From: Oligoflexia bacterium
Lineage (GTDB): Bacteria; Bdellovibrionota; UBA1018
Direction of reading: 5' to 3'
DNA: 64,000 bases
NCBI GenBank assembly: GCA_963758495.1
Contig: CAVWVI010000004.1
Location: forward strand, 512,001 to 576,000
Shown piece after piece: positions 564-47,099 of this stretch. The notes beneath the pieces are model-generated. The model was not told the DNA's origin. It ran no database searches and saw nothing but the letters and a program-made list of their open reading frames with translations. Positions within the stretch are counted from its first letter, which is position 1. Each line of letters opens with the position of its first letter. A program made the translations under genes and the position numbers.

Positions 564-2341
564 ATTTTTTCTTACCCATCATAACGCTTTTTTTACTGAT
601 TTTTGTAATCGACCTCTTCTTTCGTAACAGCAGAGACTTACTCTATCGTACAAATATTTTATCAGGAAAAATTCCTCTTAACGAGCAACAGCTATTGGAA
701 GTCGTTCAAAAATACGGAAACAATAGCAATTCCTTCATGACGCTTTACCCTGGCTTTGATTACTTTAAATCAAAAGATCCAACTATTCCTGGAGCTATAG
801 CATTTTTAGAAATGTCGTACGCTTGGATCGGTGGGACCGAACCTCTCACTTCTCCAGAATGTGAAAATAGGCTCCTCACTGAATTCGCCGAAGCTGCTGC
901 GAAAGTAGGAAAAACTGCTGTTTTATTGCCTGTGAATCAAGAAGTCGCCAAAAGAGCTTCAAAAGCAGGATATGGCAGCTTAATGATTGGACGTGAACCT
1001 GTCTTTGATTTATCTTTTTATCCCAAAACTGGAAACACTTGGATTGATATCATACCGACAGCTAAGCAACTTGATGCAAAAGGTGCAAGAATTATTGAAA
1101 TTTCTCCCACTCAATGCTCCCAGCAAATCAAACATGAACTCGATGCGATCACAACCGAATGGTTATCTACTAGAAAAATGGATCCATTAGGCTTTTTAAA
1201 TAAAGTAGAACCTTGGACCCTTTCTGAACATAAAAAGTATTTTTACCTTGAGCTTTCAGGAAAAATACTAGCATTTTTAGCAGCAATCCCCATTTGGCCA
1301 CGACGTGGCTGGTATCTTATTGATTTAGTGCGAAAAAAAGACACTCCCGCAGGAACTACTGAGTTACTCACCCTTCGAAGTATGCAGCTTCTAAAAAATG
1401 CAGGTGCCCAAGAGGTTACTCTAGGTGTCTCACCTCTTGCTCAACTGGACTCTGACCCTTCAAACCCAAAACTATCAGCATTTCTTCGTATGATGTACGA
1501 AAAAGGAAATCTATTTTATAATTTCAAATCTCTTTATCAATACAAACTCAAGTTTGATCCCACAAGATGCGATGCTGCTTATCTTATATTTAAAAATATA
1601 GAAACACAGCAGACTCACCTTCGACTCAAGGATGTCCTCAGCATATTTCAAGCTTTCTCTCGAAAGGGACTGATGCATGCAACGTGGTCAGGGCTCACTC
1701 GTTCCGTAAAACAAACCCATCTTTCTGAATTAATCAGAAATCAGTTAAAATTGGCAGTAGTCGTGCGTTCAGTTCCAAGATCTTGGCGCCTTCTCCTTTT
1801 GCGTTGTAAATTTACTGTGTCCATATTGGTTTTCAATTTAGTTCTGTTTTTTGCCACGACAGAATCTTCTGGATTACTGAAATCAAGCATTGAAGCCCAA
1901 TGGGGTTACCGATGGGATACTCTTCATCAATCCCCCGTCCACGCACTCGCACTTTCTCCTTTTCTTCATTGGAATTTAACTCATTTAAATATCAATTTAA
2001 TCCTACTCATTTGTTTCACTGGAGGATTAGAATATCTTGCAGGCACAGGCTTTGTGGCCCTGTGTTACCTGATTCCCATGATCCTTTCAAACCCTCTCAC
2101 CTCATTATGCCTGGGTGCAATGAATTTTCCGCTGACAGAGCTTGATGTGGGGGCGTCTTTAGGAATTTTTGGCTGTGTCGGCGCTCTGAATGGGTTTTTG
2201 CGACATGGAATCATCTTGAGCGCTAGCCTATGCGGCATCACCTTGATTCAAGCACTGGTGACGCATAATGGACTTGTTTTGAATCATTGGACGGCTCTCT
2301 TTCTTGGAACCTTAATTGGAAGACTTGCACTCAAAAAGTAA
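557..2341 (+). CDS. DUF2156 (MprF/LPG-synthase C-terminal, aminoacyl-tRNA-dependent transferase) domain fused to a C-terminal rhomboid-like membrane domain
   Basis: MprF-C motifs WYLIDLVRKKDTPAGTTE, LGVSPLA, FYNFKSLYQYKLKFDP; C-terminal TM region with SPFLHWNLTHL, VGASLG and a late His (NHW). Confidence 0.75.
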   Translation: MLNFFLPIITLFLLIFVIDLFFRNSRDLLYRTNILSGKIPLNEQQLLEVVQKYGNNSNSFMTLYPGFDYFKSKDPTIPGAIAFLEMSYAWIGGTEPLTSPECENRLLTEFAEAAAKVGKTAVLLPVNQEVAKRASKAGYGSLMIGREPVFDLSFYPKTGNTWIDIIPTAKQLDAKGARIIEISPTQCSQQIKHELDAITTEWLSTRKMDPLGFLNKVEPWTLSEHKKYFYLELSGKILAFLAAIPIWPRRGWYLIDLVRKKDTPAGTTELLTLRSMQLLKNAGAQEVTLGVSPLAQLDSDPSNPKLSAFLRMMYEKGNLFYNFKSLYQYKLKFDPTRCDAAYLIFKNIETQQTHLRLKDVLSIFQAFSRKGLMHATWSGLTRSVKQTHLSELIRNQLKLAVVVRSVPRSWRLLLLRCKFTVSILVFNLVLFFATTESSGLLKSSIEAQWGYRWDTLHQSPVHALALSPFLHWNLTHLNINLILLICFTGGLEYLAGTGFVALCYLIPMILSNPLTSLCLGAMNFPLTELDVGASLGIFGCVGALNGFLRHGIILSASLCGITLIQALVTHNGLVLNHWTALFLGTLIGRLALKK

Positions 2342-4160
2342 ACTCAATAAAAACCATGGGCCAAACGGTTAAAGAATGCCCAGTACCCTGAAGCTCCGCT
2401 TCATTCATCCGATACGCTGCCCATTGCTCTTGTAGCCATATACCTACCGTCAAAGTATCATTTAAAGGATGCGAAAATTCTAGATTTCCGCTTTGTGCAT
2501 ATCGGTAGGAAAGCCCTGTGTTTTGGTAGAGCCCCCCCACGCTTAAGCTTGCTAAATAACTTCCAAAAAACCTTTTGTGAATTCCTCCTTCTAGATAAGG
2601 TCCAAAAAATCCAAAGTTGTTAAAACCAAATTGGCTCGTAGGTTCTTCAATCACACGACCTAGATAGGAAACTCGCACACCCGCATTTAAAGTGAAATAG
2701 AATTTAGGCTGAAAAAACCTACGTACTATACCGATCAGAATTTGAGTCTCATGAGCAACCAATCTCACTTGATTCGGAACATGAGTTTCAAAATCCCCTG
2801 GTTCAACATAATTTTTATTAACGCTGATCAGTGATTCAATTGAGTAATGTGGATTGAGCCAATAATCATACTGGACTTGACCTTGAGTGAAAGTAGAAGT
2901 TTTTAAGATAACGCTAGCCGGAGAATTTGAGTCATTACCTGAAAAATAATAATTTGTATACTCACTCCCATAAAAAAGTCGAAGAGCATTCTGATGTTTT
3001 GAGTATTCATCGAACATCAGATAAGTTTCATAGGTCTCTTCAGCTCCAGTACGATTTCGCGCGGCCTGAATTTCCAAAGGCATAAACTCACTATAGGGTC
3101 CACGCTCACCTGCCGTATCGACCGCTGCCACACGCCAATAATAGAAACCAGCCGTATCGGTCTTCCAAACATACTTGATGTTGGAAACAGACCTTTCTTG
3201 AATCAAATGTTTAAATTCAGAATCTGTTGAAATTTGAATGACATAATCACGAGCGCCTAAAACAGATTTCCATTCCAACTCTACCGAGTATTTACCGCCA
3301 TTCGAACCTTCATCGGCATACGCTTCAGCAATAAATAACTGATTCAGAGTTTGCATCCATTTTCTATCGACTCTTCTTTGTTGGGCTCCTTCATTCGGAT
3401 AATGAATGACAGGTCGTTTTAAAATAGGTGGATCAATACTTTGAAGAATCACTTCGTTATTCTGAATCATTTGAATATTTACTTTCGGTCTCAAAAGCTC
3501 AGGAGGTTGAATCAAATGATGAACGATAACAGGAGGCGTCGGGCTACTTAAAATTTTATGATTTCCAGGAGTTTGAAATACGAGTCCAAGCTCTACAGAT
3601 GCCAAGCTCGAATCGGTAATTTCCACATCTCCTTGATTGATATCAATGATGGGCTCCCCTTGAACTGAGCTCTTAATTTTAAAACTTGCAGAACCGGTAC
3701 TCACTACTTTTTTACTACCCACTTGGATCTCAAGAGAAGCTCGATTTTCCCCTTGCTTATTTAAATCTTGCTGCACTGTCCCCTTCACTAAAGTCAAAAT
3801 AAATGCCCGACTATTCAACGATGGCGTCTTTCGCAGCATCACTACCGAATCAGGACCGAGGCTTACCGATTGACCATCTATAAACTTCAAGGTGACGGCG
3901 GATGAAGCTCCCGTCATAATTTCGTCTCCCTCAAATAAGCTCATTCCTTCCTTAATTTGCTTCCAATAGAGCTGATGCCTCGAATGACTCTTCGCTGTTC
4001 GAGACACTGATTGGACTTGAGCAATACGAACTGCTTGAGAATGCCTATCGGTAGGTTTCCACAAAAAATGGAAATTAGAAAATAGCATCCACACTTCAAT
4101 TACCAATGCAAATAAGATGAGTACTACCCATTTACGCTCTACATAATTCAAAAACTTCAC
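2331..4160 (-). CDS. FecR-domain protein with FN3-like domain and C-terminal beta-barrel-like region
   Basis: N-terminal TM; FecR-like LFEGDEIMTGASSAVTLKFIDGQSVSLGPDS; FN3-like YYWRVAAVD; terminal Phe. Confidence 0.65.
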   Translation of the reverse strand: MKFLNYVERKWVVLILFALVIEVWMLFSNFHFLWKPTDRHSQAVRIAQVQSVSRTAKSHSRHQLYWKQIKEGMSLFEGDEIMTGASSAVTLKFIDGQSVSLGPDSVVMLRKTPSLNSRAFILTLVKGTVQQDLNKQGENRASLEIQVGSKKVVSTGSASFKIKSSVQGEPIIDINQGDVEITDSSLASVELGLVFQTPGNHKILSSPTPPVIVHHLIQPPELLRPKVNIQMIQNNEVILQSIDPPILKRPVIHYPNEGAQQRRVDRKWMQTLNQLFIAEAYADEGSNGGKYSVELEWKSVLGARDYVIQISTDSEFKHLIQERSVSNIKYVWKTDTAGFYYWRVAAVDTAGERGPYSEFMPLEIQAARNRTGAEETYETYLMFDEYSKHQNALRLFYGSEYTNYYFSGNDSNSPASVILKTSTFTQGQVQYDYWLNPHYSIESLISVNKNYVEPGDFETHVPNQVRLVAHETQILIGIVRRFFQPKFYFTLNAGVRVSYLGRVIEEPTSQFGFNNFGFFGPYLEGGIHKRFFGSYLASLSVGGLYQNTGLSYRYAQSGNLEFSHPLNDTLTVGIWLQEQWAAYRMNEAELQGTGHSLTVWPMVFIEFTF

Positions 4161-4242
4161 GTATACTCGACTCCCCCCCTTAATGCAGGTAATATACTAT
4201 TAAAGTTTCAATAATTTTAAACTTATTCAAGAGTATAACTGC

Positions 4243-6342
4243 ATGAGATGGTCATTACGGACAAAAATATTAATCATTCTTTCGACTCTTTTATTAATTG
4301 TAGTCACAGCACACCTTATTTTATCTGAAAAAATACTCCGTGAAGATAAAGAATTACTTATTTATGATAGTAATCGATCCAATACTGAGCAACTTGCAAA
4401 CGAACTCGACAATTCAATGCATCGAGTTATCGACAAAATGGAGCTTCTTGCGGAGCTAGTTCTCAATAATTCAAACTTATCTAAAAGCAATGGCAAAGTG
4501 CTTGCTGAGCTTTTCATCGAAAAGGATCCAGATCTACTTGTCTTTCAAATCATCCAACCTAAAAAAAGCCACACCCCCATACAAGGGGAGCTTTTATCCA
4601 AAAAGAAAATCCAAGCAATCAAATTAAGCTTATCGCAAATTCATAATAATCATATTTTACCCATTTCATTTGATTCTTCTCAAAGTGAAATTTCAATAGA
4701 AAATCGCTCTATTGCAAACACCATTCTTTATTTAATTCGAGTACCGGTTCAGATCAATGGAACCAAGAAGCAAGAACCCATTTTTGCACAAGCCTTAATC
4801 GATGGCCGCTCCTTGGAACTGATTTTTCGTGAAAGTCAGTCGTTAGCAGTAAATTTTGCAGTCACCCACACTGGACAAATTTTCACACACCCAAACCTCG
4901 ACTGGGTGACCTCAAGAAAGAATTTAAATAATCTAGAAATCGTAAAAAAGGCCCAACTTCAACAATTCACGATGCAGCAGATGGTCTTTGATTTTGAGAA
5001 AAAAAGCTATATGGGAGTTTACCAAAAAACTACCCTGGGGTCTCTAACAGTGATCTCTATGATCGATAAAAGCATCGCTCGAAGAGCAAGTCGTATTCTT
5101 CTTGAAAAGACTATGATTCTTTCGCTCATTATTGTCACTGTCGTATTATTGATCAGTTTATTTTTTGCGGGATCTTTAAGCACCCCTCTCTTGAGTCTCG
5201 TGGATGCTACAAAGCAAATTTCTTTAGGCAATTTCGACACTCCGATTGACGTTCATACTCAGGACGAGATTGGAGTCCTCGCTCTCGCATTTTCAAAAAT
5301 GACAAAAGAACTTAAGTCCTCACGATTGCTACTCGAAGAATATAATCGAGATCTCTCTCTTAAAGTTCATGAACGAACCCAAGAACTCGAAAGCAAAAAT
5401 GCTGCAATTCGTCAACAGCATGAAGTCCTGATTCAATCGACTCATTTAGCTACCCTGGGAGAAATTGCTGGAAAAGCTGCACATGAAGTTCTCAACCCCC
5501 TTACGGCTATGATTTCCAACCTCGAAAAGTTATTGAACTATACAAAGCAACTGAGTCAATCACCCTCTACTTCGCTTTCATTATTTAAAACCATCTTAGA
5601 TAGCTGGAGAGAAGCTTATCATTTAGGAGGTCTTCAAGCTTGGTTGGAGAATGTCAAACAGCCCAGCCGCATACTCCCAGGAAAATCCCTCCTTGAAGAG
5701 GATATCGAAAACTTAAATTTAATCTTAGGGCAGTTCAGTAGTTTTACTCAAAAATCCAATTCGGACTTACAACTGATTCTAAGCGAATCTCACCGAATCT
5801 CCAGAATCGTGGATCAATTGAGAGGACTGAGCCGAACTACCCGATTGACCTCACCTATAGATATCAATACGATTATTACTGATAGCATTCAAGTTACTGA
5901 AGATCTGCTCGCCCGTTATAAAATCAAAATCGAAACTCGACTCGATGAGTCACCTCTTTATATTGTAGCTAATGACGATGAAATGAGACAAATTTTCTTT
6001 AATCTCATTAAAAACTCTATGGATGCCATTCATGCTTCAAACTCTCATTCCGGTGGAAGAATTCAAATCACCACCCAAGCATTAAAAGAACAAGTCAAAC
6101 TGAACTTTTGGGATAATGGTATTGGGATTCCTTTAAAAAACCGGGATAAGATTTTTGAGTCCGACTTTAGCACTAAAGGAGCCTATGGGACGGGATTCGG
6201 TTTAGGCATCTGTCGCCGTTTTGCACGTGCAGCTGGAGGAGAAATTATCGTGAAAGCAAGCGAGCCAGGAAAATTTACGGAATTTGAACTTACTTTTCCT
6301 CGTGGATACCCACCTAACTCTCTTGAACCAGAAAAGAAATAA
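4243..6342 (+). CDS. Membrane sensor histidine kinase (Cache-like, HAMP, HisKA, HATPase)
   Basis: Two TMs, HAMP (DEIGVLALAFSKM), H-box AHEVLNPL, N-box NLIKNSMDA, DNGIG, GTGFGL. Confidence 0.9.
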   Translation: MRWSLRTKILIILSTLLLIVVTAHLILSEKILREDKELLIYDSNRSNTEQLANELDNSMHRVIDKMELLAELVLNNSNLSKSNGKVLAELFIEKDPDLLVFQIIQPKKSHTPIQGELLSKKKIQAIKLSLSQIHNNHILPISFDSSQSEISIENRSIANTILYLIRVPVQINGTKKQEPIFAQALIDGRSLELIFRESQSLAVNFAVTHTGQIFTHPNLDWVTSRKNLNNLEIVKKAQLQQFTMQQMVFDFEKKSYMGVYQKTTLGSLTVISMIDKSIARRASRILLEKTMILSLIIVTVVLLISLFFAGSLSTPLLSLVDATKQISLGNFDTPIDVHTQDEIGVLALAFSKMTKELKSSRLLLEEYNRDLSLKVHERTQELESKNAAIRQQHEVLIQSTHLATLGEIAGKAAHEVLNPLTAMISNLEKLLNYTKQLSQSPSTSLSLFKTILDSWREAYHLGGLQAWLENVKQPSRILPGKSLLEEDIENLNLILGQFSSFTQKSNSDLQLILSESHRISRIVDQLRGLSRTTRLTSPIDINTIITDSIQVTEDLLARYKIKIETRLDESPLYIVANDDEMRQIFFNLIKNSMDAIHASNSHSGGRIQITTQALKEQVKLNFWDNGIGIPLKNRDKIFESDFSTKGAYGTGFGLGICRRFARAAGGEIIVKASEPGKFTEFELTFPRGYPPNSLEPEKK

Positions 6343-37739: not shown

Positions 37740-38573
37740 ATGAGCTTTAGCTTCCAAGGATGGTATCGTTTTCGGGGAGTCCTCTCGAGTACATTGATTT
37801 TTAATACGTTGGTTTTTTCTTTGAATACTTTGGCTTCGATGCCCGAGAAAGATTACAAAGCAGCTCTGCAAGTGGCAGAAGCTAAAGTCGTGAAAAAAGC
37901 ATCAGCCCTGAATCAGGCTCAAGCACTCTCAGCATCCATGATTAAGCAGTTATTCGGCCGTTATTACCAAGTCGGCGATAGTTGGGATGTCGCGGCGTGG
38001 CCGATGAATCATGCCACGATGCGTATGACGAGTGATCCGGTTCAACTTCAAAATAAATTGGGCAAAGGGGGCTTATTTCATTATGAAGTGGTTGAAGTAA
38101 AATCCGGCACTGTTCCTCAAGTGATTTTGCAAGTCACGCAAGTTCAATCTAATGATTTTACAATTGTAGACCCTAAAATTACGCGACTGATGCTCACTAT
38201 GAATGATCAATTCGCTCAAAGTAAGAAAGTTTATTTTTTTCAGAATCAGACTTCGGGTGTCGAGGTTTCTCCTGAAGGAGTTCACTCTCGAGTCACTTCT
38301 TTAGAACTTTTTCCTCTCGATGTTCCTGATGTCGTCACAGCAGATCGCCACACACATCCGTCACTCCCCACTCTTCCTCCTCAAGTGCTTCCTTTTGCAG
38401 AACGAATTCATTTCAAACCGAATCTTTCGCATTGCTTATGGTTTGAACAAGATGATTTCTTCGGACGCCCTGTTCAGATCCTTTGGCAAAAGGGTGATCC
38501 GTGGCCAACCTATTTTAAAACCTCGGGTGGGATAGCCCTCCTCGTTCAGAATGGACACATGGAGGGCTTATGA
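37740..38573 (+). CDS. Hypothetical secreted protein
   Basis: Signal peptide; ATGA-coupled to the next gene. Confidence 0.7.
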   Translation: MSFSFQGWYRFRGVLSSTLIFNTLVFSLNTLASMPEKDYKAALQVAEAKVVKKASALNQAQALSASMIKQLFGRYYQVGDSWDVAAWPMNHATMRMTSDPVQLQNKLGKGGLFHYEVVEVKSGTVPQVILQVTQVQSNDFTIVDPKITRLMLTMNDQFAQSKKVYFFQNQTSGVEVSPEGVHSRVTSLELFPLDVPDVVTADRHTHPSLPTLPPQVLPFAERIHFKPNLSHCLWFEQDDFFGRPVQILWQKGDPWPTYFKTSGGIALLVQNGHMEGL

Positions 38574-40102
38574 AAACTATTACCCCAATTACTACCCAAA
38601 TGACTAGATGGACAGCTAGCACTTCTATCGCTCTCGCCCTCCTCAGCTCCTGTGGCCCCAGCGCTTCCCAATTCGCCGATAACACGGGTACTAATATCGC
38701 AGTCACGGCACCTACGCCCGCTCAAACTCCAAATGTTCCTTATCCTAGCTTTAGAGGACAAGATTTTCATGGCGAAAAAAACTTCGCGTTCTTAATGAAT
38801 ACTTATACCCAAGGAAAAGTAGAACCCACCCCTTGGGCAGGATACTGGTGGCCCTACACAGGCAACGGAACTGCATCTGGCACTTACACAGGAGGAGGAA
38901 GCCCAGTTGGAAAATATGATGCAGCCCGAGGAGACACCACTCACGCTCAATTATGGGAAATAAAAAATCACGGAATAGGAGTTCCCAGAGTCCAACAATG
39001 GTGGGGACATTGTAATGGATGGTGTGTTGCCTCCGCTCTCTTTCCAGAACCTCACGAACCCGTTGAGGTGAATGGCATCACGTTCGGTATAGGTGACATT
39101 AAAGCACTTTTGAGCGAAGCAGGCATGTCTGCCAATGCTGATTTTTATGGAGAGCGAGTCGACGTCGACGACCCGAACTCTCCCAAGTATTGGGATACCA
39201 TTCCCGATCAATATTTTTTGGTCTTAACTAATTATATTGGAAAATTAAAACAGGCAGTTCTCATTGATCGGTATACGGGCTCACAAATTTGGAATCAACC
39301 TTTAGCCGGATACAAATTTGAATACCCAAAACCAGAAGACTATTTAGGTAACTCTCCAGAAGCGCCTCACGTTTATCGAATGATCGTGACTTCTACGCTT
39401 TGGTGGATGGACGATGGAGTGATGCCTGACGTACAAACAGTTCAATTCAATTACGAAGATGATCCTTCAGGAATGATTCAATCTAGAACTCTCAGAATGG
39501 AAGTCTGGTTGGATGCTCCTGTCGTTTTTGATGCAAACGGAAAAATGACTTCAAGTGGAGATGTCATTGTAACCCGTGATGGAGAAACCCTAACGGGGGG
39601 AGCCTGGAGGATGGGGGACGGCTACCTCGTCGATGCTTGGCCTGATTATATGTGGGTTCCTTACAGCATTATCAAGCCTACAGATCCTGACGAGGACTAC
39701 GCTAATCCTGAAGTAGATATGGATTGGATCAAAGCTCATATTCTTGTGTCCGGGGGCGCTAATGATCCTTCCGTATCACCAGGAACGGTGAGACCTGCGC
39801 CGATGCCTTATCCTTCTGGGTTTCCAACTTCTTGGCCAAGTTTTCCTGCAGGATGGCCATCAGGAAATCCACAGCCATGGCCGTCTGGGAATCCGCAACC
39901 CTGGCCCACAAGCTGGGGACCTCCCACTTCTGGAGGATCTGGGTCTACTGGTACTCCTTTGCCTGGGTCATCTGGAAATCCACAACCCTGGCCCAGTTGG
40001 GGGCCTCCTATTTCTGGAGGATCTGGCTCGACGGGTACTCCTTTGCCATGGCCGGCCTGGATTCCATCACCTCGACCTACATCCAACTATCCAGAAATTT
40101 GA
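38570..40102 (+). CDS. Lipoprotein with transglutaminase-elicitor (GP42)-like domain and Pro/Gly/Trp repeat tail
   Basis: Lipobox LLSSC; PWAGYWWP, WWGHCNGW, DIKALLS, QIWNQP; tail SGNPQPWP x3 and SWGPPxSGGSGSTGTPLP x2. Confidence 0.7.
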   Translation: MKTITPITTQMTRWTASTSIALALLSSCGPSASQFADNTGTNIAVTAPTPAQTPNVPYPSFRGQDFHGEKNFAFLMNTYTQGKVEPTPWAGYWWPYTGNGTASGTYTGGGSPVGKYDAARGDTTHAQLWEIKNHGIGVPRVQQWWGHCNGWCVASALFPEPHEPVEVNGITFGIGDIKALLSEAGMSANADFYGERVDVDDPNSPKYWDTIPDQYFLVLTNYIGKLKQAVLIDRYTGSQIWNQPLAGYKFEYPKPEDYLGNSPEAPHVYRMIVTSTLWWMDDGVMPDVQTVQFNYEDDPSGMIQSRTLRMEVWLDAPVVFDANGKMTSSGDVIVTRDGETLTGGAWRMGDGYLVDAWPDYMWVPYSIIKPTDPDEDYANPEVDMDWIKAHILVSGGANDPSVSPGTVRPAPMPYPSGFPTSWPSFPAGWPSGNPQPWPSGNPQPWPTSWGPPTSGGSGSTGTPLPGSSGNPQPWPSWGPPISGGSGSTGTPLPWPAWIPSPRPTSNYPEI

Positions 40103-41227: not shown

Positions 41228-41779
41228 TCAGTTAGGGTACTTGAGATAGTAAATATCTGGGAGATTTCGACTTCGCTCCTCAAGATCTAAGCCATAACCT
41301 ACTAAAAACTGGTCATCAATGGTTCTTCCACTGTACTTAACCGATACGTCGACCACTCGCTTAGACACCTTATCAAGAAGGGTCACAATCTCTACCGACG
41401 CAGGTCCGGCAGCCATGAGTCGATCATAGAGAAACCTCAAGGTGCGACCGCTATCTATAATTTCTTCAACGATCAGGACATGCTTGCCTCGAATATCTGC
41501 TTGAATATCCTTCAAAATAGTCACAGTTCCACTTGAAGTTCTACCTTTTCCATAGCTGGATAATCGTACAAATTCGACTTCTACAGGAACATGAATTTGT
41601 CGCACTAAGTCGGCCATAAAAAGGATTGCTCCCTTGAGAACCCCAATCAGTATGATTTCTTTACCTTCGTAATCCTGATTAATCTTGTTTGCAATTGACT
41701 GAACAGCCGCTTCGATCTCATGTCGATTGAGATACTTTGTGAAATTTTTTTCATCCAGCATGACAAGAACCCTCAACAA
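41228..41779 (-). CDS. hpt: Hypoxanthine phosphoribosyltransferase
   Basis: GVLKGA, SSYG, VLIVEEIIDSGRTL, FLVGYGLD. Confidence 0.95.
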   Translation of the reverse strand: MLRVLVMLDEKNFTKYLNRHEIEAAVQSIANKINQDYEGKEIILIGVLKGAILFMADLVRQIHVPVEVEFVRLSSYGKGRTSSGTVTILKDIQADIRGKHVLIVEEIIDSGRTLRFLYDRLMAAGPASVEIVTLLDKVSKRVVDVSVKYSGRTIDDQFLVGYGLDLEERSRNLPDIYYLKYPN

Positions 41780-41884
41780 AATAATACATGGGAAATGAGA
41801 TTGCTGTAACTAATAAAAATATGCAACTAAGTTGGTTCAGAGTTCGAAGAAGAAGTGGCTTTTGAAGCACTTTTTTCGACACTC

Positions 41885-42139
41885 TCAGAACTTGACGATG
41901 GGCTTGATGATGGGCTTGATGACCGAAGTTGCCGATGACGCTGCTTGAGCAATTGCGTCTTGGTTTTTAGCCTGCTCTTCAATTTTACGAAATTTTGCCT
42001 CTTCGACGCCCGAAATCGCATCTTTAAAGTTGCGAATCGCTTTACCTAGGGTATTTCCTAGTTCAGGGAGGCGACGGGGACCAAAAATGAGTAACACAAT
42101 ACCTAAAATGAGAAGATGCTCGCCAGATATTCCAAACAT
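41885..42139 (-). CDS. tatA: Twin-arginine translocase TatA/E subunit
   Basis: LLIFGPRRLPELGNTLGKAIRNFK; ATG start at 42139 preferred. Confidence 0.9.
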   Translation of the reverse strand: MFGISGEHLLILGIVLLIFGPRRLPELGNTLGKAIRNFKDAISGVEEAKFRKIEEQAKNQDAIAQAASSATSVIKPIIKPIVKF

Positions 42140-42167
42140 AAACACTGTATACAGGTCGATAATTCCC

Positions 42168-42887
42168 GTGTCAATTGCGGTTCTCAGGTGCCTACTCTGG
42201 TTTATGCCCTACTCTACTGCAATCCCCTGCTGGGCTGATGAAATACAACCTAAAGGCACCAACGCTTACCAAATCGTTACAGGGGATGACTCTGAAGGTG
42301 ACCGCCGGCACTGGGACAAGCTTTTCAACACCCGAGCGTACATCTATGGAAAAGAGCCCTCCCCTTTCCTCAAGGACCACATTTCCTTACTGCTACGAAC
42401 CCCCTCTTCCCAGCCTTTTTTGATGCGTAATCGCCACGCGGCCGATATTGCTATGGGCGAAGGAAGAAATGCTGTCTTCTTGGCAAAAATGGGATTTTCA
42501 GTGGATGGCGTTGATATCTCTGAAGTCGCTCTTCGTAAAGCCAAGCATCTGGCTCATGAAAATGGAGTCACCCTCAATACGGTCATCGCGGATTTGAATC
42601 ACTACAAACTGAAACCAGAATTTTACCACGTCATTGTGAATATTGACTACCTTCAGAGGAACCTCATTCCCCAAATCAAACGTGGCCTTAAAAAACAAGG
42701 GATCGTTATTTATGAAAACTACACCCTCGACCAGCTCAATAATGTAGGTGGCCAATACCTCAGTAGAGATTCATTACTCAACAAAGGGGAGCTCAAAGAG
42801 CTATTTAAAGACTTTCAGATTTTAGTTTATCGAGAATCCAATGATGGAACGAATGCAAAAGCGAGTATCATTGCGAGAAAGCCTTAA
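42168..42887 (+). CDS. Class I SAM-dependent methyltransferase (TehB-like)
   Basis: YGKEPS, DIAMGEGRNA, GVDIS; start uncertain (GTG 42168 or ATG 42204; 42030 overlaps tatA). Confidence 0.85.
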   Translation: MSIAVLRCLLWFMPYSTAIPCWADEIQPKGTNAYQIVTGDDSEGDRRHWDKLFNTRAYIYGKEPSPFLKDHISLLLRTPSSQPFLMRNRHAADIAMGEGRNAVFLAKMGFSVDGVDISEVALRKAKHLAHENGVTLNTVIADLNHYKLKPEFYHVIVNIDYLQRNLIPQIKRGLKKQGIVIYENYTLDQLNNVGGQYLSRDSLLNKGELKELFKDFQILVYRESNDGTNAKASIIARKP

Positions 42888-43849
42888 CCTTTAAATCGAT
42901 ACTGAGTGGTTGCTTGAGTTCCTGTCTTAATCAATTTCTTTTCTGAAACTCCTAGCGCGAGATCCCGGCTTGCAGTTGCAGTCGAAATAGTCTTAAAGAA
43001 CTGAAGGTAATCTTTGCGAGAAAATTCACGTCGCTTAAATTCCATCTGAGCCAGCTCAAGTCGGGATTGAGGCGTCTCTGAATCTGGCTTGAGCTGATCC
43101 AAGAAGTCTTTGAGAGCATCTCGAATCGTTCCCAGTGAGAACTCAATAAAATCAGTTGAATCTCCTTTTTTGTCACACCGCTCAAGGATTGAATAATAAG
43201 ACTCTTGTCGATCTTTAATTAAAGACTCAACAGGAAGATATTCGAACACGCCCTGGTATTTCGTTAAAATCAGAGACTGCCAAAAGCGACCTATCCGTCC
43301 ATTTCCATCTGAAAACGGATGGATAAATTCCAACTCATAGTGAAATACACAGGCAAGAATGAGAGGAGACAACTCTTTCGCATTTTTTAAAAAGCTAAAA
43401 AGGTTATCCATCAGCTGAGGCACTTGCTTTGCGGGAGGTGCGAGATGAGATACCTTTTGACCTTTGAGTATCCCCACCGCTCCAAGACGGTATTTCCCAG
43501 CGTTCGGAATCAGATCTTTCATCAGAACACCATGTGCCCACAATAAATCCTTCTCTTTGATCGGATTCAACTCATAAAGCGATTCATAAAGCCTGATCGT
43601 ATTTTGAACTTCACCTATATCCCGCTTTGGGCCCTTGACTCGCTTACCTCCGAAAATCGCTGTAACCTGCTCTAGATCGAGAGTATTCCCTTCGATCGCA
43701 AGACTATCCTTGATCGTTCTCACTCGATTTTGACGTCTGAGCTTGGGCTGAGGAACTGGCGCGTGAAATCCTTCATACTTGCCCAGCAAATGACTCACTT
43801 CAGAAACAAGATTAAGAATCTTAGGCGTGAGGATAAAAGGAGGGTACAT
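42884..43849 (-). CDS. Fic family protein with C-terminal wHTH
   Basis: SLAIEGN inhibitory motif, HPFSDGNGRIGR, ISTATASRDL. Confidence 0.93.
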   Translation of the reverse strand: MYPPFILTPKILNLVSEVSHLLGKYEGFHAPVPQPKLRRQNRVRTIKDSLAIEGNTLDLEQVTAIFGGKRVKGPKRDIGEVQNTIRLYESLYELNPIKEKDLLWAHGVLMKDLIPNAGKYRLGAVGILKGQKVSHLAPPAKQVPQLMDNLFSFLKNAKELSPLILACVFHYELEFIHPFSDGNGRIGRFWQSLILTKYQGVFEYLPVESLIKDRQESYYSILERCDKKGDSTDFIEFSLGTIRDALKDFLDQLKPDSETPQSRLELAQMEFKRREFSRKDYLQFFKTISTATASRDLALGVSEKKLIKTGTQATTQYRFKG

Positions 43850-43855
43850 AGATAG

Positions 43856-43877
43856 GATAGTATCATATGATACTATC
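43856..43877. promoter_or_regulatory. Perfect 22-bp palindrome just upstream of the Fic start
   Basis: GATAGTATCATATGATACTATC. Confidence 0.7.
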
Positions 43878-43910
43878 GGATATCATAAAAAATCATTTAC
43901 CTGCAAATGT

Positions 43911-44112
43911 GCCTTTACCAAATAAATCAGACTTATTTTTAATCACCTCGTTGAAGCTTCTTTGACGAACTAACACCCACTCCAGGGTTGTTTCACGTTC
44001 ACTCGTTCCCGTTCCCCTACGCCTCCGGCTACGGGGCGATCCACCGTACCGTGAACGTGACATTGAAGAAATCCATGGAAAGATTATATTTTTTATTTTT
44101 TGGAATATTTTA
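43911..44112 (-). repeat. Left long inverted repeat of the HNH element
   Basis: Reverse complement matches 45243-45433; 43919-43994 vs 45349-45424 is 71/76 identical. Confidence 0.92.
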
Positions 44113-44165
44113 AAATATAATTTTTCGATCAAAATACCTCGTAAATTCACATTATTTTATATATT

Positions 44166-45191
44166 ATGCCTCTATCTATGATTACTTTTATTGAAGACGT
44201 TTCGGTTCTCTCAGATAAAGAATTGCTCAGCTACTCTGTAAAACTTGCTCAGCATGAAAAAGAAATTGGATTACAAATTATCATCTGTTTGCGAGAAGCC
44301 GAGAGACGAATGCTCTATTGTCAATTGGGAATGAATTCATTGTGGGAGTTTGCAACTCAACATTTGGGTCTCAGTAGCGGAAACGCACAAATGAAGATTG
44401 ATGCGATGCGCCTATCTAGAGACAATCCTATTGCACAGGAAAAAATTAAAACCGGAGAACTAAGCCTCGTAAACGCGGCAAAAGTGAATAGTTTTTTTAG
44501 ACAAGAAAAGAAGGCAGGTCATATCTATACGCCGGAACAAAAGGCAGAAGTCATTGAAAGCGTTTTGGATCTGTCTCAAAGTAAATGCGAACGGGCATTG
44601 TTGGCACGAGCTCCAGAATCTATTCCTGCAGAAAAAATTCGCCCACTGACAGAAACAAAAACAGAAGTCAAAATTGTAGTGAATCAAGAAACGATGGCTA
44701 TCTTGAAACGATTAAAAGATCTGTTGTCCAACAGGATGCCTAATGCAACCTACGCAGACCTTTTGGATTATCTCGCACGAGAAAAAGTGGAAGTTTTAGA
44801 AAAGAAACAGATGGGAGTCACGCTGGAAGAACTTGAGTGCGTTTCCACCGCTACAGGTGAGGTAACTCCAGCTAATATCACGTCTATAAAGATGGAGATG
44901 GAAATAGAAGCAGGTCCACCCCACAACGCACCCACACCTCGCAAGTACATTTCGGTTGAAGACCGTAGGTGGGCTATGAGAAGGGCTGGAGGACAATGTG
45001 AACATGTTTCTTCGAATGGGCGCCGTTGTACCAATAGACGACAACTTCAGCTAGATCACAAAATTCCTCTGGCACTTGGGGGCACGAACGAGCGCTCAAA
45101 TTATCGGATTGCGTGCAGAGCCTGTAATATATTTTATGCAAAAATGCATTTGGGTGAAGTCATGAATAAATACGTTCCCAGCTTGAATTAG
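44166..45191 (+). CDS. HNH endonuclease with a long helical N-terminal domain
   Basis: C-terminal RAGGQCE..C..LQLDHKIPLALGGTNERSNYRIACRACN. Confidence 0.9.
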   Translation: MPLSMITFIEDVSVLSDKELLSYSVKLAQHEKEIGLQIIICLREAERRMLYCQLGMNSLWEFATQHLGLSSGNAQMKIDAMRLSRDNPIAQEKIKTGELSLVNAAKVNSFFRQEKKAGHIYTPEQKAEVIESVLDLSQSKCERALLARAPESIPAEKIRPLTETKTEVKIVVNQETMAILKRLKDLLSNRMPNATYADLLDYLAREKVEVLEKKQMGVTLEELECVSTATGEVTPANITSIKMEMEIEAGPPHNAPTPRKYISVEDRRWAMRRAGGQCEHVSSNGRRCTNRRQLQLDHKIPLALGGTNERSNYRIACRACNIFYAKMHLGEVMNKYVPSLN

Positions 45192-45242
45192 GATACTTGT
45201 AGTCCACCTGCATGATAACAAGATAAAGATGGGCTTTTCTAG

Positions 45243-45433
45243 TAAAAATATTTCAAAAAATAAAAATATATTCTTCCCATGAATTTCTTCATGATCTTGT
45301 TTACGGTACGGCAACGCCGGCGCGGCCTGGACGGCCGCGAGTAAACAAGAAACAACCATGGAGTGGGCGTTAGTTCGTCAAAAAAGCTTCAACGAGATGA
45401 TTAAAAATAAGTCTGATTTGTTTGATAAAAGGC
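45243..45433 (+). repeat. Right long inverted repeat of the HNH element
   Basis: Partner of 43911-44112; stem TCTTGTTTAC/GTAAACAAGA encloses GCAA-loop and CGCGGCC/GGCCGCG hairpins. Confidence 0.92.
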
Positions 45434-45560
45434 TGGAGATGGTTCGGAAGGAGATCCTAGGTGAACTCCAGGAAAAATCCAAAGTATTATCTGAATAACT
45501 CAATCAAACCATTACTGTGAGATGAATGAGTATTTAAATTTGATCGAAGTGAATCAATAT

Positions 45561-45761
45561 TTAATTTAAATGACCTTCGATAGACTTAAAATACTGGAGT
45601 AAGTCATTTAACGTTTCAGGATATTCTTTGCATGAAATTGAGATACCAGCAAAGTTTTCCCATTCCAGGGTTACAGTACTTCCATTCAGATCATAATCAA
45701 TAAAAACTTGATCGAAGGAATCGATAACATTAACTTCTTTCGCCTTTAGTTGATCGATCAT
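45561..45761 (-). CDS. Small hypothetical protein, possibly 5'-truncated
   Basis: Acidic, protein-like ORF in AT-rich DNA; frame continues upstream. Confidence 0.4.
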   Translation of the reverse strand: MIDQLKAKEVNVIDSFDQVFIDYDLNGSTVTLEWENFAGISISCKEYPETLNDLLQYFKSIEGHLN

Positions 45762-46064
45762 TATAGATCTAATTTTTAAAAAAAGCTTGTTATCATCGCT
45801 ATCAAATAAAATTACAGGAATAGTAGTTTCAGTATGGTTCGAAATTTGGCTTGTATTAGCTGAGATCGTATCGTTCTTAAAGTATGAATATGAACTTAGA
45901 GGTTTAATGCCTAATTCAGCATTTCTTCCTGATGTTGAGTAATAAGAAAGAGCATTAGATCTTATTTTAAATTCAGCCTATCATGGTAATTCTGCTTTAT
46001 CAAATTAATATTTTACATTTAAATATTAATTTATACTAAACAGAGTAACTTGCGACTTGGAACA

Positions 46065-47099
46065 TCAAAAATTCAAATCCGCCGCCGCAGGACGCGTCAT
46101 CAGATTTTTAAGCACATCATGAACTGAAATTTTTTCGTTAATCAGACGGTTAATTCCTTCAGTAATAGGCATGGAAATCCCATGCTTGGAAGCAAATTCC
46201 CATACGGCTTGAGCGGTCCTCACTCCTTCAGCGGTGCTGCCCAAATCAATTAAAATATTTGCCAATTCTTCACCTTGAGCCAACCGAAGACCGACCCGAT
46301 AATTTCGACTCAGCGGACTATTACTTGTCGCCAGAAGATCCCCTATTCCAGCAAGTCCTAAAAAGGTAGACTCTTCAGCTCCCATAGCCATTCCAAATCG
46401 AACCATCTCGGCCAAACCTCGGGTCACTAAGAGTGCACGAGCATTCCAACCCAACTTCATTTCATCTACAGCACCTGAAGCAATCGCAAGAATGTTCTTA
46501 AGAACTCCTGCCCATTCCACCCCAATGATATCTCGACTTCGATAGACCCGAAAGCGATCGCTTGCCAAGAGCGCTTGCCCCGCATCGCAGACTTCCGTAA
46601 ACACCGAAGCAACAACAGTTGCCGCAGGTTCTCCTCGTGCAATTTCATGAGCTAAATTGGGACCACTAATGACCCCAATCCGTCGGCACGGTAATTCTTC
46701 CATTAAAATCTGAGAAATACGTTTCAAACTTCCTGACTCTATTCCTTTGGTCGCATGCAGAACCAGCTCATCCCCTTGCAGAAATGGAGCAATTTTTTTA
46801 GCCTGTTCTCGGCACACACTCGAAGGAAGAGCCCAAATCACACAATGAAGGCCCCCTTCAAACAATCGATTCAAGGAACTATAAGCATGCACTTTTTCAT
46901 TGAGCTGCAAACCCGGCACATATTGATCATTGGTTCGAGTTGAATTAATCGACTTCACCGACTCTTCATCTCGGAGCCAAACTCTGACCTCACGACAGTT
47001 CAGAGATACACTGTTTGCCAATACAGTGCCCCAGCTACCGCCACCGATCACTCCTACTTTTGAATTACGCCAAAAACCCTTGGCCATCATTTTGTCCAA
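46065..47099 (-). CDS. gpsA: NAD(P)H-dependent glycerol-3-phosphate dehydrogenase
   Basis: GGGSWGT, TKGIE, SGPNLA, LKNILAI, GLAGIGDL, SRNYRVG. Confidence 0.95.
   Translation of the reverse strand: MDKMMAKGFWRNSKVGVIGGGSWGTVLANSVSLNCREVRVWLRDEESVKSINSTRTNDQYVPGLQLNEKVHAYSSLNRLFEGGLHCVIWALPSSVCREQAKKIAPFLQGDELVLHATKGIESGSLKRISQILMEELPCRRIGVISGPNLAHEIARGEPAATVVASVFTEVCDAGQALLASDRFRVYRSRDIIGVEWAGVLKNILAIASGAVDEMKLGWNARALLVTRGLAEMVRFGMAMGAEESTFLGLAGIGDLLATSNSPLSRNYRVGLRLAQGEELANILIDLGSTAEGVRTAQAVWEFASKHGISMPITEGINRLINEKISVHDVLKNLMTRPAAADLNF

Follow-up and report, generated by a model that had tools for sequence, protein, structure and literature searches.

A multicopy HNH nuclease gene with long structured inverted repeats, a putative selfish element, in an Oligoflexia bacterium

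The HNH gene and its arms

The DNA analysed here (the window) is a stretch of 64,000 nt from an Oligoflexia bacterium, whose genome is designated G000. The unit of interest in the window, designated E1, consists of a gene for an HNH nuclease of 341 aa (44166–45191, + strand) situated between a left arm (43911–44112, + strand) and a right arm (45243–45433, − strand). The gene was assigned on the basis of its ORF, Pfam, conserved columns and an AlphaFold2 model. The arms are reverse complements of one another, the right being an inverted copy of the left, and both match the profile of a terminal inverted repeat designated type A, with E values of 1e–47 (left) and 1e–52 (right).

A repeat search resolved the arms into three inverted pairs: 43914–44012/45331–45429 (99 nt, 88 % identity), 44044–44100/45255–45311 (57 nt, 81 %) and 44090–44111/45245–45266 (22 nt, 95 %). 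All three are joined in a single alignment when the left and right flanks are compared by gapped blastn (43914–44111/45245–45429, 198 columns, 79.8 % identity, E value 6.8e–41). As previously noted, it is only in their GC-rich centre that the arms differ. The original prediction, of an HNH ORF enclosed by reverse-complement arms of approximately 190 nt that diverge only at the centre, was therefore borne out, and the divergence of approximately 20 % between the arms rules out the assembly duplicate that had been raised as a possible refutation.

The HNH gene is the only ORF of more than 90 aa inside E1, and no recognised transposase gene is present there; an HNH gene is likewise the sole ORF of that size in a copy from G029, one of three comparison genomes (G029, G031 and G032) from other Bdellovibrionota. 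No target-site duplication was seen at the E1 arm ends, which are less sharply defined than those of the copies E3 and E4 described below. Both absences had been noted previously from the DNA alone. A single perfect palindrome with arms of at least 8 was found between 43850 and 45500; it lies upstream of E1, and there is none in the ORF. Within the left arm, the inner, AT-rich portion contains a promoter-like site, TTGAAG-16-TATATT (44063–44090, + strand), which faces the ORF, matches the consensus at 9 of 12 positions and is a candidate promoter.

The E1 protein matched the Pfam HNH family (PF01844) with 28.1 bits (cut-off, 21.4). It comprises a helical, DUF222-like N-terminal region, a disordered linker (residues 225–253) and a C-terminal HNH/zinc motif formed by C278, C288, D297-H298, N312, C317, C320 and N321. 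In 20 aligned sequences C278, C288, H298, G305, G306 and C317 were invariant, and D297, N312 and N321 were nearly so. When the AlphaFold2 model (pLDDT 83.5) was compared with the PDB using Foldseek, the HNH domain alone was matched, with nothing at E ≤0.001; the nearest solved folds to that domain, 4h9d and 6ghc, are nicking or McrA-type HNH enzymes. Some relatives of the protein are named McrA-like by JGI. The HNH stretch also matched TbaIscB (E value 1e–3), and the NCBIfam guided_IscB model scored 21.1 bits (cut-off, 175) over residues 268–333 only. No RuvC or PLMP parts were found in the protein; the absence of RuvC motifs had already been read from its sequence.

The relationship to DUF222 (PF02720) is seen through relatives. 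The E1 protein itself gave no match to that family even at an E value of 10. DUF222 was matched in 2 of 20 close relatives, and at the N-terminus of 11 of 38 relatives sampled from a profile search (E ≤0.01), four of which exceed the Pfam cut-off of 24.4 bits. Residues 1–225 score 0.96 with an Atlas cluster that bears the name DUF222. Judged from these comparisons, the E1 protein, which lacks RuvC, is probably related at a distance to the DUF222-HNH (REP13E12-type) proteins. A ParB/Noc-like N-terminus was also considered and gained no support when PDB sequences were searched by profile. The protein was unmatched in PADLOC and in plasmid and phage records.

It had been proposed that relatives might reveal the empty site of E1 near gpsA. 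The unit is indeed absent from the syntenic site: neither a Fic nor an HNH gene was found at any of 17 gpsA loci of relatives, in nine of which hpt lies less than 600 nt from gpsA. An inversion and the Fic gene further distinguish the locus from that of these relatives, which belong to other genera, and none of them offered a clean empty site that differs in E1 only.

Sister copies, arm-only pairs and other genomes

Sixteen matches to the HNH family were found in G000, and five of these paralogue loci (E1 to E5) have both arms. The first four were detected in a blastn arm test, in which both arms were present at 4 of 12 loci. The arms of E5 (151 nt, 90.7 % identical) are 5.4 kb apart because this copy has an IS200/IS605 element and a group II intron nested within it; the nested IS carries the only IS200-type tnpA gene in G000. 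Three truncated copies (P133, P277 and F407) retain the arm on the surviving side, and every one of the eight matches to type A arms in G000 adjoins an HNH-family ORF. Arm type is decoupled from protein phylogeny in this genome: E5 has type A arms, and its protein is nearer to those with type B arms.

Copies E3 and E4 constitute a 1,590-bp unit that is 99.3 % identical, stops sharply at the outer arm edges and is situated in unrelated flanks, with no target duplication at its ends. Both have the same truncation of the left arm. The identity of both arms at this level, together with the shared truncation, argues that the unit was copied whole.

Four inverted arm pairs in G000 contain no ORF: M1 (642 bp), M2 (approximately 600 bp), M3 (approximately 505 bp) and MA1. 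The terminus AAGGTTGAAAT is common to five ends, and no target duplication was found at the ends of M1. One HNH gene, at C3:178493, adjoins an arm pair and is not enclosed by it.

The arm–gene–arm architecture recurs, with unrelated arm sequences, in the three other Bdellovibrionota genomes. In G029, inverted arms flank 10 of the 23 HNH loci on both sides and nine on one side, with neither arm at the remaining four; 29 of 40 arm matches lie less than 700 nt from an HNH locus, and two arm pairs lack an ORF. The immediate flanks of the 10 arm-bounded copies do not align, apart from approximately 60 nt more that is shared by three right ends. All six long arm copies in G031 abut HNH genes, and the arm in that genome is mostly on the 3′ side only; in G032, seven of nine arm matches adjoin HNH loci. 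HNH matches per relative genome ranged from 0 to 25 (20 of 31 genomes were positive), and many copies are truncated or at contig ends. Such variable copy number, together with the truncated copies, is a selfish signature.

The presence of long inverted repeats does not extend to the family as a whole, and this counts against the interpretation favoured below. The branch of the E1 protein is large (5,618 cluster representatives matched its profile at E ≤1e–30). Long inverted repeats were found at only 3 of 80 HNH loci from genome_contigs (one of just 22 nt) and at 2 of another 27 whose flanks were usable. The two closest orthologues (approximately 60 % identity), the only close ones in a metagenome scan, have neither inverted repeats nor type A arms. 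In one multicopy genome the repeated unit comprises only the ORF, up to its stop codon, and approximately 130–190 nt of AT-rich DNA upstream of it. The original prediction that paired repeats would recur with homologues thus held for the five G000 loci and for 10 of 23 in G029, and failed for most homologues elsewhere, the closest orthologues among them.

The type A and type B profiles had no matches in 110 foreign loci, and a search of the arms against the genomes of 30 relatives returned nothing meaningful, one 31-nt row (E value 1e–3) being taken as chance. The motif CACTCCG...CGGGTGA, common to arms in G000, was rejected as a wider signal, as it matched once in 80 foreign loci, far from the gene.

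Hairpin structure of the arms

The core of the right arm (45295–45350, − strand) is predicted to form a Y-shaped structure of three helices, made up of a stem of 10 bp and two hairpins of 7 and 4 bp. Folded as DNA, it has an energy of −20.7 kcal/mol (z −5.6), and none of 200 shuffles was as good. The left-arm core (43993–44060, + strand) has an outer stem of 9–10 bp, CACGTTCAC/GTGAACGTG, around a GC-rich interior; that interior is rearranged in E1 and folds weakly as DNA (z −1.6).

Both cores are supported by covariation. The type A arms keep the three-helix structure, with 89.2 % of cells paired (32–41 % in slid controls) and compensatory double changes at 12 of 19 pairs (1–4 in slid controls); the observed covariation was reached by none of 500 shuffles. 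Helix 1 is retained via compensatory changes across eight arms. The structure is retained whichever way an arm is oriented towards the gene, and the arms of E1 and E5 can be aligned despite proteins that are only 30 % identical. Double changes numbered 21 among 132 paired cells, and one-sided (G-U) changes were absent. Covariation restricted to Watson–Crick pairs fits better with a DNA structure than with an RNA. No consensus structure emerged from RNAalifold for the type B/M arms, and the structural claim is therefore limited to type A. One foreign arm folds as DNA, in single-sequence folds only.

Possible routes of spread and known systems

Taken together, the data favour, with a probability of roughly 0.5, the interpretation that E1 is one copy of a multicopy HNH (DUF222-like) element with long structured inverted repeats, which likely spreads selfishly through repair-dependent copying initiated by a nick or break. 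The HNH protein would be the enzyme that acts on the arms: it would recognise the hairpin-bearing arms (or a target) and nick or cut, and host repair or replication would then do the copying. The arms would function at the level of DNA and not as RNA, and the ORF-less pairs would depend on the HNH enzyme supplied in trans, in the manner of MITEs and REPINs. Because HNH enzymes hydrolyse DNA without being able to rejoin it, such a protein cannot be a self-sufficient transposase, and HNH-only transposition is not known to have a biochemical precedent. A self-contained selfish unit that lacks a transposase and whose repeats are tied to the HNH gene had been proposed from E1 alone; the five loci in G000, the 10 of 23 in G029 and the ORF-less pairs are in accord with that proposal.

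An alternative that we consider rather unlikely is that the arms are independent palindromic repeats, MITE- or REPIN-like and moved by another agent, which an HNH promoter-plus-ORF cassette parasitises as a target. The conserved unit across most of the family is, indeed, the cassette alone; arms are absent from the closest orthologues, arm type and protein clade do not correspond, the G031 arm is mostly one-sided and the gene at C3:178493 lies beside an arm pair. The ORF-less palindromes could then be empty targets. Against this, the E3/E4 unit was copied whole, and the HNH adjacency of every type A arm in G000, of every long arm in G031 and of 29 of the 40 G029 matches leaves no pool of empty full-length targets in the first two genomes. 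The other candidate enzyme that was sought, an IS200-type TnpA, occurs only once, in the nested element. It is still less probable that nothing here is mobile, the HNH genes being old paralogues (e.g. restriction- or repair-type nucleases) and the arms local upstream duplications of a regulatory or terminator-like kind. The identity of only 80 % between the E1 arms, which makes any insertion old, the promoter-like site within the arm and the McrA-like names of some relatives would suit such an origin. It is difficult to reconcile with a two-copy unit of 99.3 % identity and sharp ends, with 0 to 25 copies per relative genome, with ORF-less pairs that share termini, with truncated and invaded copies, with at least 10 arm-bounded G029 copies in flanks that cannot be aligned (save for the three right ends mentioned above) or with the lack of a PADLOC match.

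Equally improbable is the suggestion, made in the original prediction, that the nuclease is RNA-guided or RNA-associated. The arms would then encode structured RNAs that serve as guides or partners, on the model of IscB/HEARO or TnpB systems. The left flank of E1 does fold well as RNA (z −4.5), the left arm occupies the position of a 5′ UTR or upstream ncRNA with the promoter-like site near, and one small outer hairpin, as read from the sequence, requires G-U pairs on the sense strand. These points are outweighed by the covariation free of G-U changes, by the retention of one structure in arms of either orientation and by a protein without RuvC/IscB architecture, in which guided_IscB matches the HNH stretch alone. 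A search of Rfam at E ≤1 with 43000–46500 and five sister loci, moreover, returned no HEARO or omega RNA and only chance snoRNA-like rows. On this evidence the suggestion is unsupported, and the selfish DNA element is favoured.

With regard to systems already described, PMC10589994, which cites Gordon 1999, names REP13E12/HNH/DUF222 as a class of repeats. The DUF222-HNH genes of mycobacteria and other actinobacteria (PF02720 plus PF01844) resemble E1 in that each is a one-gene unit of approximately 1.4–1.6 kb that encodes a helical N-terminus and a C-terminal HNH domain and is dispersed in multiple copies. They differ in that the E1 protein has no DUF222 match of its own and in that the hosts here are Bdellovibrionota. 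Multicopy DUF222-HNH repeat genes are thus already known; structured terminal arms and arm-only pairs are not met in the literature searched, which yielded no long structured terminal inverted repeats or ORF-less arm pairs for such genes.

The REPIN–RAYT system, or REPtron (REPINs are defined in PMC3337134), is alike in having a nuclease gene between inverted structured repeats, dispersed ORF-less doublets and no target duplication. The enzyme here is HNH, however, and not an HUH/Y1 RAYT, the HNH gene itself is multicopy, and the arms are 130–290 nt long with approximately 8–20 per genome, whereas REPs are 20–40 bp and occur in hundreds of copies. IS200/IS605 elements with IscB or TnpB (HEARO/omega RNA) share structured DNA ends, the absence of target duplication and, distantly, the HNH motif, but the E1 unit lacks TnpA, RuvC and an Rfam HEARO match, and its ends are inverted rather than direct. 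Units of the E1 type have the terminal inverted repeats of a classical insertion sequence without a recognised transposase or target duplication. Free-standing HNH homing endonuclease genes are single selfish genes with their own promoter, as E1 would be, but the copies described here (E3/E4 and those in G029) are at unrelated sites with non-homologous flanks, so that classical allele-to-allele homing is no explanation of their spread.

A broader and more tentative reading, which is possible but less probable than the first, is that the structured-arm HNH (DUF222-like) elements are a new class of prokaryotic transposable element, in which the sole protein would be a ββα-metal nuclease that reads DNA hairpins at its own ends, produces no target duplication and supports MITE/REPIN-like riders. 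The enzyme would then be set apart from the DDE, HUH, serine, tyrosine and Cas1 types. DUF222-HNH genes are very common and have long been listed as a repeat class, the multiplication of which such a class would explain. G000 and G029 are compact test cases, with a unit of 1.5–1.6 kb, a covarying hairpin, near-identical sisters and arm-only derivatives, so that binding, nicking and mobilisation can be assayed directly. If movement is not driven by the HNH enzyme, the arms are still an uncatalogued family of structured repeats tied to one gene family; if it is, HNH-driven movement through structured ends would be a chemistry of transposition that the known transposase classes do not cover.

The HNH element and its protein

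The element under study, E1, occupies window positions 43911..45433 (window coordinates are contig coordinates minus 512000). A repeat search resolved its arms into three inverted pairs: 43914-44012/45331-45429 (99 nt, 88%), 44044-44100/45255-45311 (57 nt, 81%) and 44090-44111/45245-45266 (22 nt, 95%). Gapped blastn of the left against the right flank joined all three in a single alignment (198 columns, 79.8% identity, E value 6.8e-41). The ORF at 44166-45191 (341 aa), situated between the arms, is the sole ORF of more than 90 aa in the unit. These data confirm the original prediction of inverted arms around a single HNH ORF. The earlier observation that no target-site duplication is visible agrees with sequence inspection, in which no direct repeat was seen at the outer arm ends.

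Among Pfam families, only HNH (PF01844) was matched by the E1 protein (28.1 bits, cut-off 21.4; residues 287-321). The NCBIfam model guided_IscB scored 21 bits, far below its cut-off of 175, and its match was confined to the HNH stretch; it follows that the protein has no RuvC domain, as had been noted. In an alignment of 20 relatives, C278, C288, H298, G305, G306 and C317 never vary, and D297, N312 and N321 hardly do; judged from sequence, the catalytic motif looks intact. In the AlphaFold2 model (mean pLDDT 83.5), the N-terminal part is long and helical; two short strands, a disordered linker (225-253) and the HNH fold are also present. Foldseek searches of the PDB with this model matched the HNH part alone, to 6ghc (McrA) and 4h9d (the nicking enzyme Gme HNH), and no match reached an E value of 0.001. 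A profile search of PDB sequences gave the same picture (4h9d at 3.6e-5, McrA, IscB, Cas9 and a group II maturase).

No match to DUF222 (PF02720) was found in the E1 protein even at an E value of 10. That domain is present at the N-terminus in 2 of 20 close relatives and in 11 of 38 sampled profile-search relatives (4 above the Pfam cut-off), and residues 1-225 of the E1 protein scored 0.96 against an Atlas cluster named DUF222. A profile of the branch matched 5,618 cluster representatives at E values up to 1e-30 and 19,067 at 1e-10. The E1 protein is read as belonging to a distant branch of the DUF222-HNH (REP13E12-type) genes.

A perfect 22-bp palindrome, GATAGTATCATATGATACTATC, separates the left arm from the start codon (43849) of a Fic gene; it lies at 43856-43877 and resembles an operator for Fic more than a part of E1. 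The Fic gene itself (42884-43849) matches the PADLOC SoFic defence model (4.4e-43). A 510-aa ORF at 38570-40102 carries C-terminal tandem proline- and glycine-rich repeats (GNPQPWP..., GGSGSTGTPLP...), and from these features its product looks like a secreted or surface protein.

Distribution and duplication of the arms

In a first search of the organism's own genome (5 contigs, 3.66 Mb), the E1 arm sequence was found in its own two places alone, and the E1 protein had 16 matches. Sensitive blastn and nhmmer profiles revealed two arm families. The eight type A matches comprise both arms of E1, one arm upstream of P133 (a truncated, 73%-identical paralogue), both arms of a second element, E5 (151 nt, 90.7% identical, 5.4 kb apart), an ORF-less adjacent inverted pair, MA1, approximately 200 nt upstream of another paralogue, and one arm downstream of F407, an HNH fragment. 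Type B arms are found on both sides of the sister elements E2, E3 and E4 and upstream of the truncated copy P277. A related M subfamily forms arm-only derivatives, the ORF-less palindromic units M1 (642 bp), M2 (~600 bp) and M3 (~505 bp), as well as solo arms. Altogether, both arms are present at five HNH loci, three truncated copies still carry the arm at their surviving side, one locus adjoins an arm pair, and the full-length paralogue at C4:461409 is without arms; genome-wide arm profiles placed no arm near the small HNH fragments.

Truncation, internal deletion and invasion by other elements are seen among the copies. Nested in E5 (locus L123, G000:C1:322000-330000), at ~1616-5595 of that locus, are an IS200/IS605-type pair (tnpB, 353 aa; tnpA, 165 aa, of which the genome has no other copy) and a reverse transcriptase of a group II intron (568 aa); they cut off the HNH C-terminus of E5.

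Duplication of the whole unit is apparent from E3 and E4, which share a 1,590-bp unit, 99.3% identical, with similarity bounded by the outer arm edges. A shortened left arm is common to both, their flanks are unrelated, and no target duplication was found at the unit ends. In E3 (G000:C1:198998-200595), an 8-nt word, CTACCTTA, occurs just inside the left end and immediately outside the right end; it was not counted as a target duplication because its twin E4 lacks it. The M1 arms are 96% identical over 205 nt, and the terminus AAGGTTGAAAT is common to five ends (M1 left and right, M3 left, E2 right and P277 distal). At the last three of these a TAATAATGCCAATCA-like word of ~14 nt precedes it, which may represent either a preferred target or an extended end. 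Two identical stretches of at least 75 nt, inverted relative to each other and 6.7 kb apart at C3:1349312 and C3:1356024, came to light only through the 11-nt terminus word within them; a relation to the HNH elements is improbable.

The syntenic order in relatives is plsB-gpsA-hpt-tatA-methyltransferase. Of 17 relatives' gpsA loci, nine have hpt within 600 nt of gpsA and one more has it 1.3 kb away; for the other seven, the retrieved stretch did not show it. The window has the hpt-tatA-methyltransferase block in inverted orientation, separated from gpsA by Fic, E1 and a 66-aa ORF, which sit at a rearranged junction (41228-47099). No Fic or HNH match was found at any of the 17 loci. E1 is therefore lineage-specific at this site, but the locus differs by more than E1 alone.

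A pattern scan, with one genome per species, found 103 relatives, of which 80 were kept, all in records titled Oligoflexia, Bdellovibrionia, Bacteriovoracaceae or similar. Of 31 relatives' genomes, which have 0 to 25 matches each, 20 have a match at E values up to 1e-20. Long flanking inverted repeats are not general: they were observed at 3 of the 80 loci (61 nt; 127 nt at 91%; a weak 22 nt), some loci being cut by contig ends, and at 2 of 27 further loci with flanks of at least 300 nt (30 examined). The two closest orthologues found (59-62% identity) are without them, and in a Bacteriovoracaceae genome with at least eight copies the common unit comprises no more than the ORF and ~130-190 nt of AT-rich DNA upstream of it, and stops with the stop codon.

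Repeats that had been found were traced through their own genomes, three other Bdellovibrionota genomes. In G029, from a different family of the same order, an HNH locus is found within 700 nt of 29 of the 40 arm matches; the 23 HNH loci found by profile have inverted arms on both sides (10), one side (9) or neither (4). There are also two ORF-less inverted pairs of ~0.6 kb. All ten fetched units, eight with the gene and two without, have an inverted repeat (37-88 nt at 78-95%), all 20 of their arms contain the block CCCCAGCAAGGCGGGT, and in one unit the HNH ORF is the sole sizeable ORF. The terminus is probably ~15-20 nt beyond CCCCAGCAAGGCGGGT, in two sequence variants. Three right ends (L176, L181 and L185) have ~60 nt in common beyond the inverted repeat, so the ends are not fully defined and the true right end may be further out and asymmetric. 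In G031, each of the six long arm copies abuts an HNH gene (3′ side only in five cases, both sides at one locus), and in G032 seven of nine arm matches abut HNH loci, one on both sides. The arm-gene-arm unit thus recurs, with tight arm-HNH linkage in four genomes whose arm sequences are mutually unrelated; paired repeats recur at some of the HNH loci in these genomes, but most foreign loci are without long repeats.

Structure in the arms

The eight type A arms are alignable, and RNAalifold gave a 10-bp outer stem around a 6-7 bp and a 3-5 bp hairpin. These hairpins covary: 89.2% of 148 cells are paired, compared with 32-41% in controls with partners slid 1-3 columns, and 12 of 19 pairs have changes on both sides, compared with 1-4 in the slid controls. 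The observed values were reached by 0 of 500 shuffles, a figure that is not a probability since the arms are related sequences; the slid controls are the fairer comparison. No one-sided (G-U) change occurs in any pair, all 21 changed cells exchanging one Watson-Crick pair for another. When each arm was folded by itself as DNA, the Y shape was obtained for three of five (z -5.6 to -6.6); the E5 left arm has a z of -2.5, and the E1 left arm, whose interior is rearranged, -1.6. The G031 arm has a multi-hairpin DNA fold (z -4.3). Type B and M arms yielded no consensus structure.

Interpretation and relation to known systems

The favoured interpretation, with a probability of about 0.5, is a selfish element in which the HNH protein acts on the arms or on a target and the unit is copied by the host. 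The protein would recognise the arms, perhaps via its DUF222-like part, and would nick or cut at or near the structured core, or at a target; host repair or replication would then copy the unit, and arm-only pairs may use the enzyme in trans. HNH enzymes hydrolyse DNA without covalent intermediates, through which HUH, serine and tyrosine enzymes rejoin DNA, and cut-and-paste is therefore less plausible than a copy route that relies on repair.

The main competing explanation, which appears rather unlikely, treats the arms as a palindromic repeat family in its own right, into or beside which a promoter-plus-ORF cassette inserts. The cassette-only copies in other genomes, the orthologues without arms and a mismatch between arm type and protein clade are in its favour, but E3 and E4 were copied as a whole unit, and there is no pool of empty full-length arms for type A or in G031. 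It is still less probable that the arms are RNA partners of the HNH protein: a DNA hairpin or cruciform fits the type A arms better, because the covariation is Watson-Crick-only and kept in both orientations, although RNA obliged to fold from both strands would also be compatible. A non-mobile, regulatory role for the arms is comparably improbable. Of the element originally proposed, selfish and with a protein that acts on or is guided by its repeats, the selfish part is supported by recurrence and by the copying of E3/E4, whereas the RNA-guide branch, given the lack of RuvC and the Watson-Crick-only covariation, is not.

In architecture the unit most resembles a REPtron with its REPINs, as defined in PMC3337134. 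As a REPtron, E1 fails the defining enzyme test of that family; it also fails the tests for a classical IS, for IscB/HEARO and for a homing endonuclease gene. A full-text search, covering few subscription journals, found no paper on an HNH gene tied to terminal inverted repeats or MITE-like derivatives. At the protein level, DUF222-HNH/REP13E12 is the closest known family. A passage of PMC10589994 places 'REP13E12/HNH endonuclease/DUF222' among repeat classes, citing Gordon 1999, and one in PMC3592412 counts DUF222, found fused to some HNH enzymes, among domains whose function is unknown. The structured terminal repeats and arm-only derivatives are a new structural form of these known, unexplained DUF222-HNH repeat genes.
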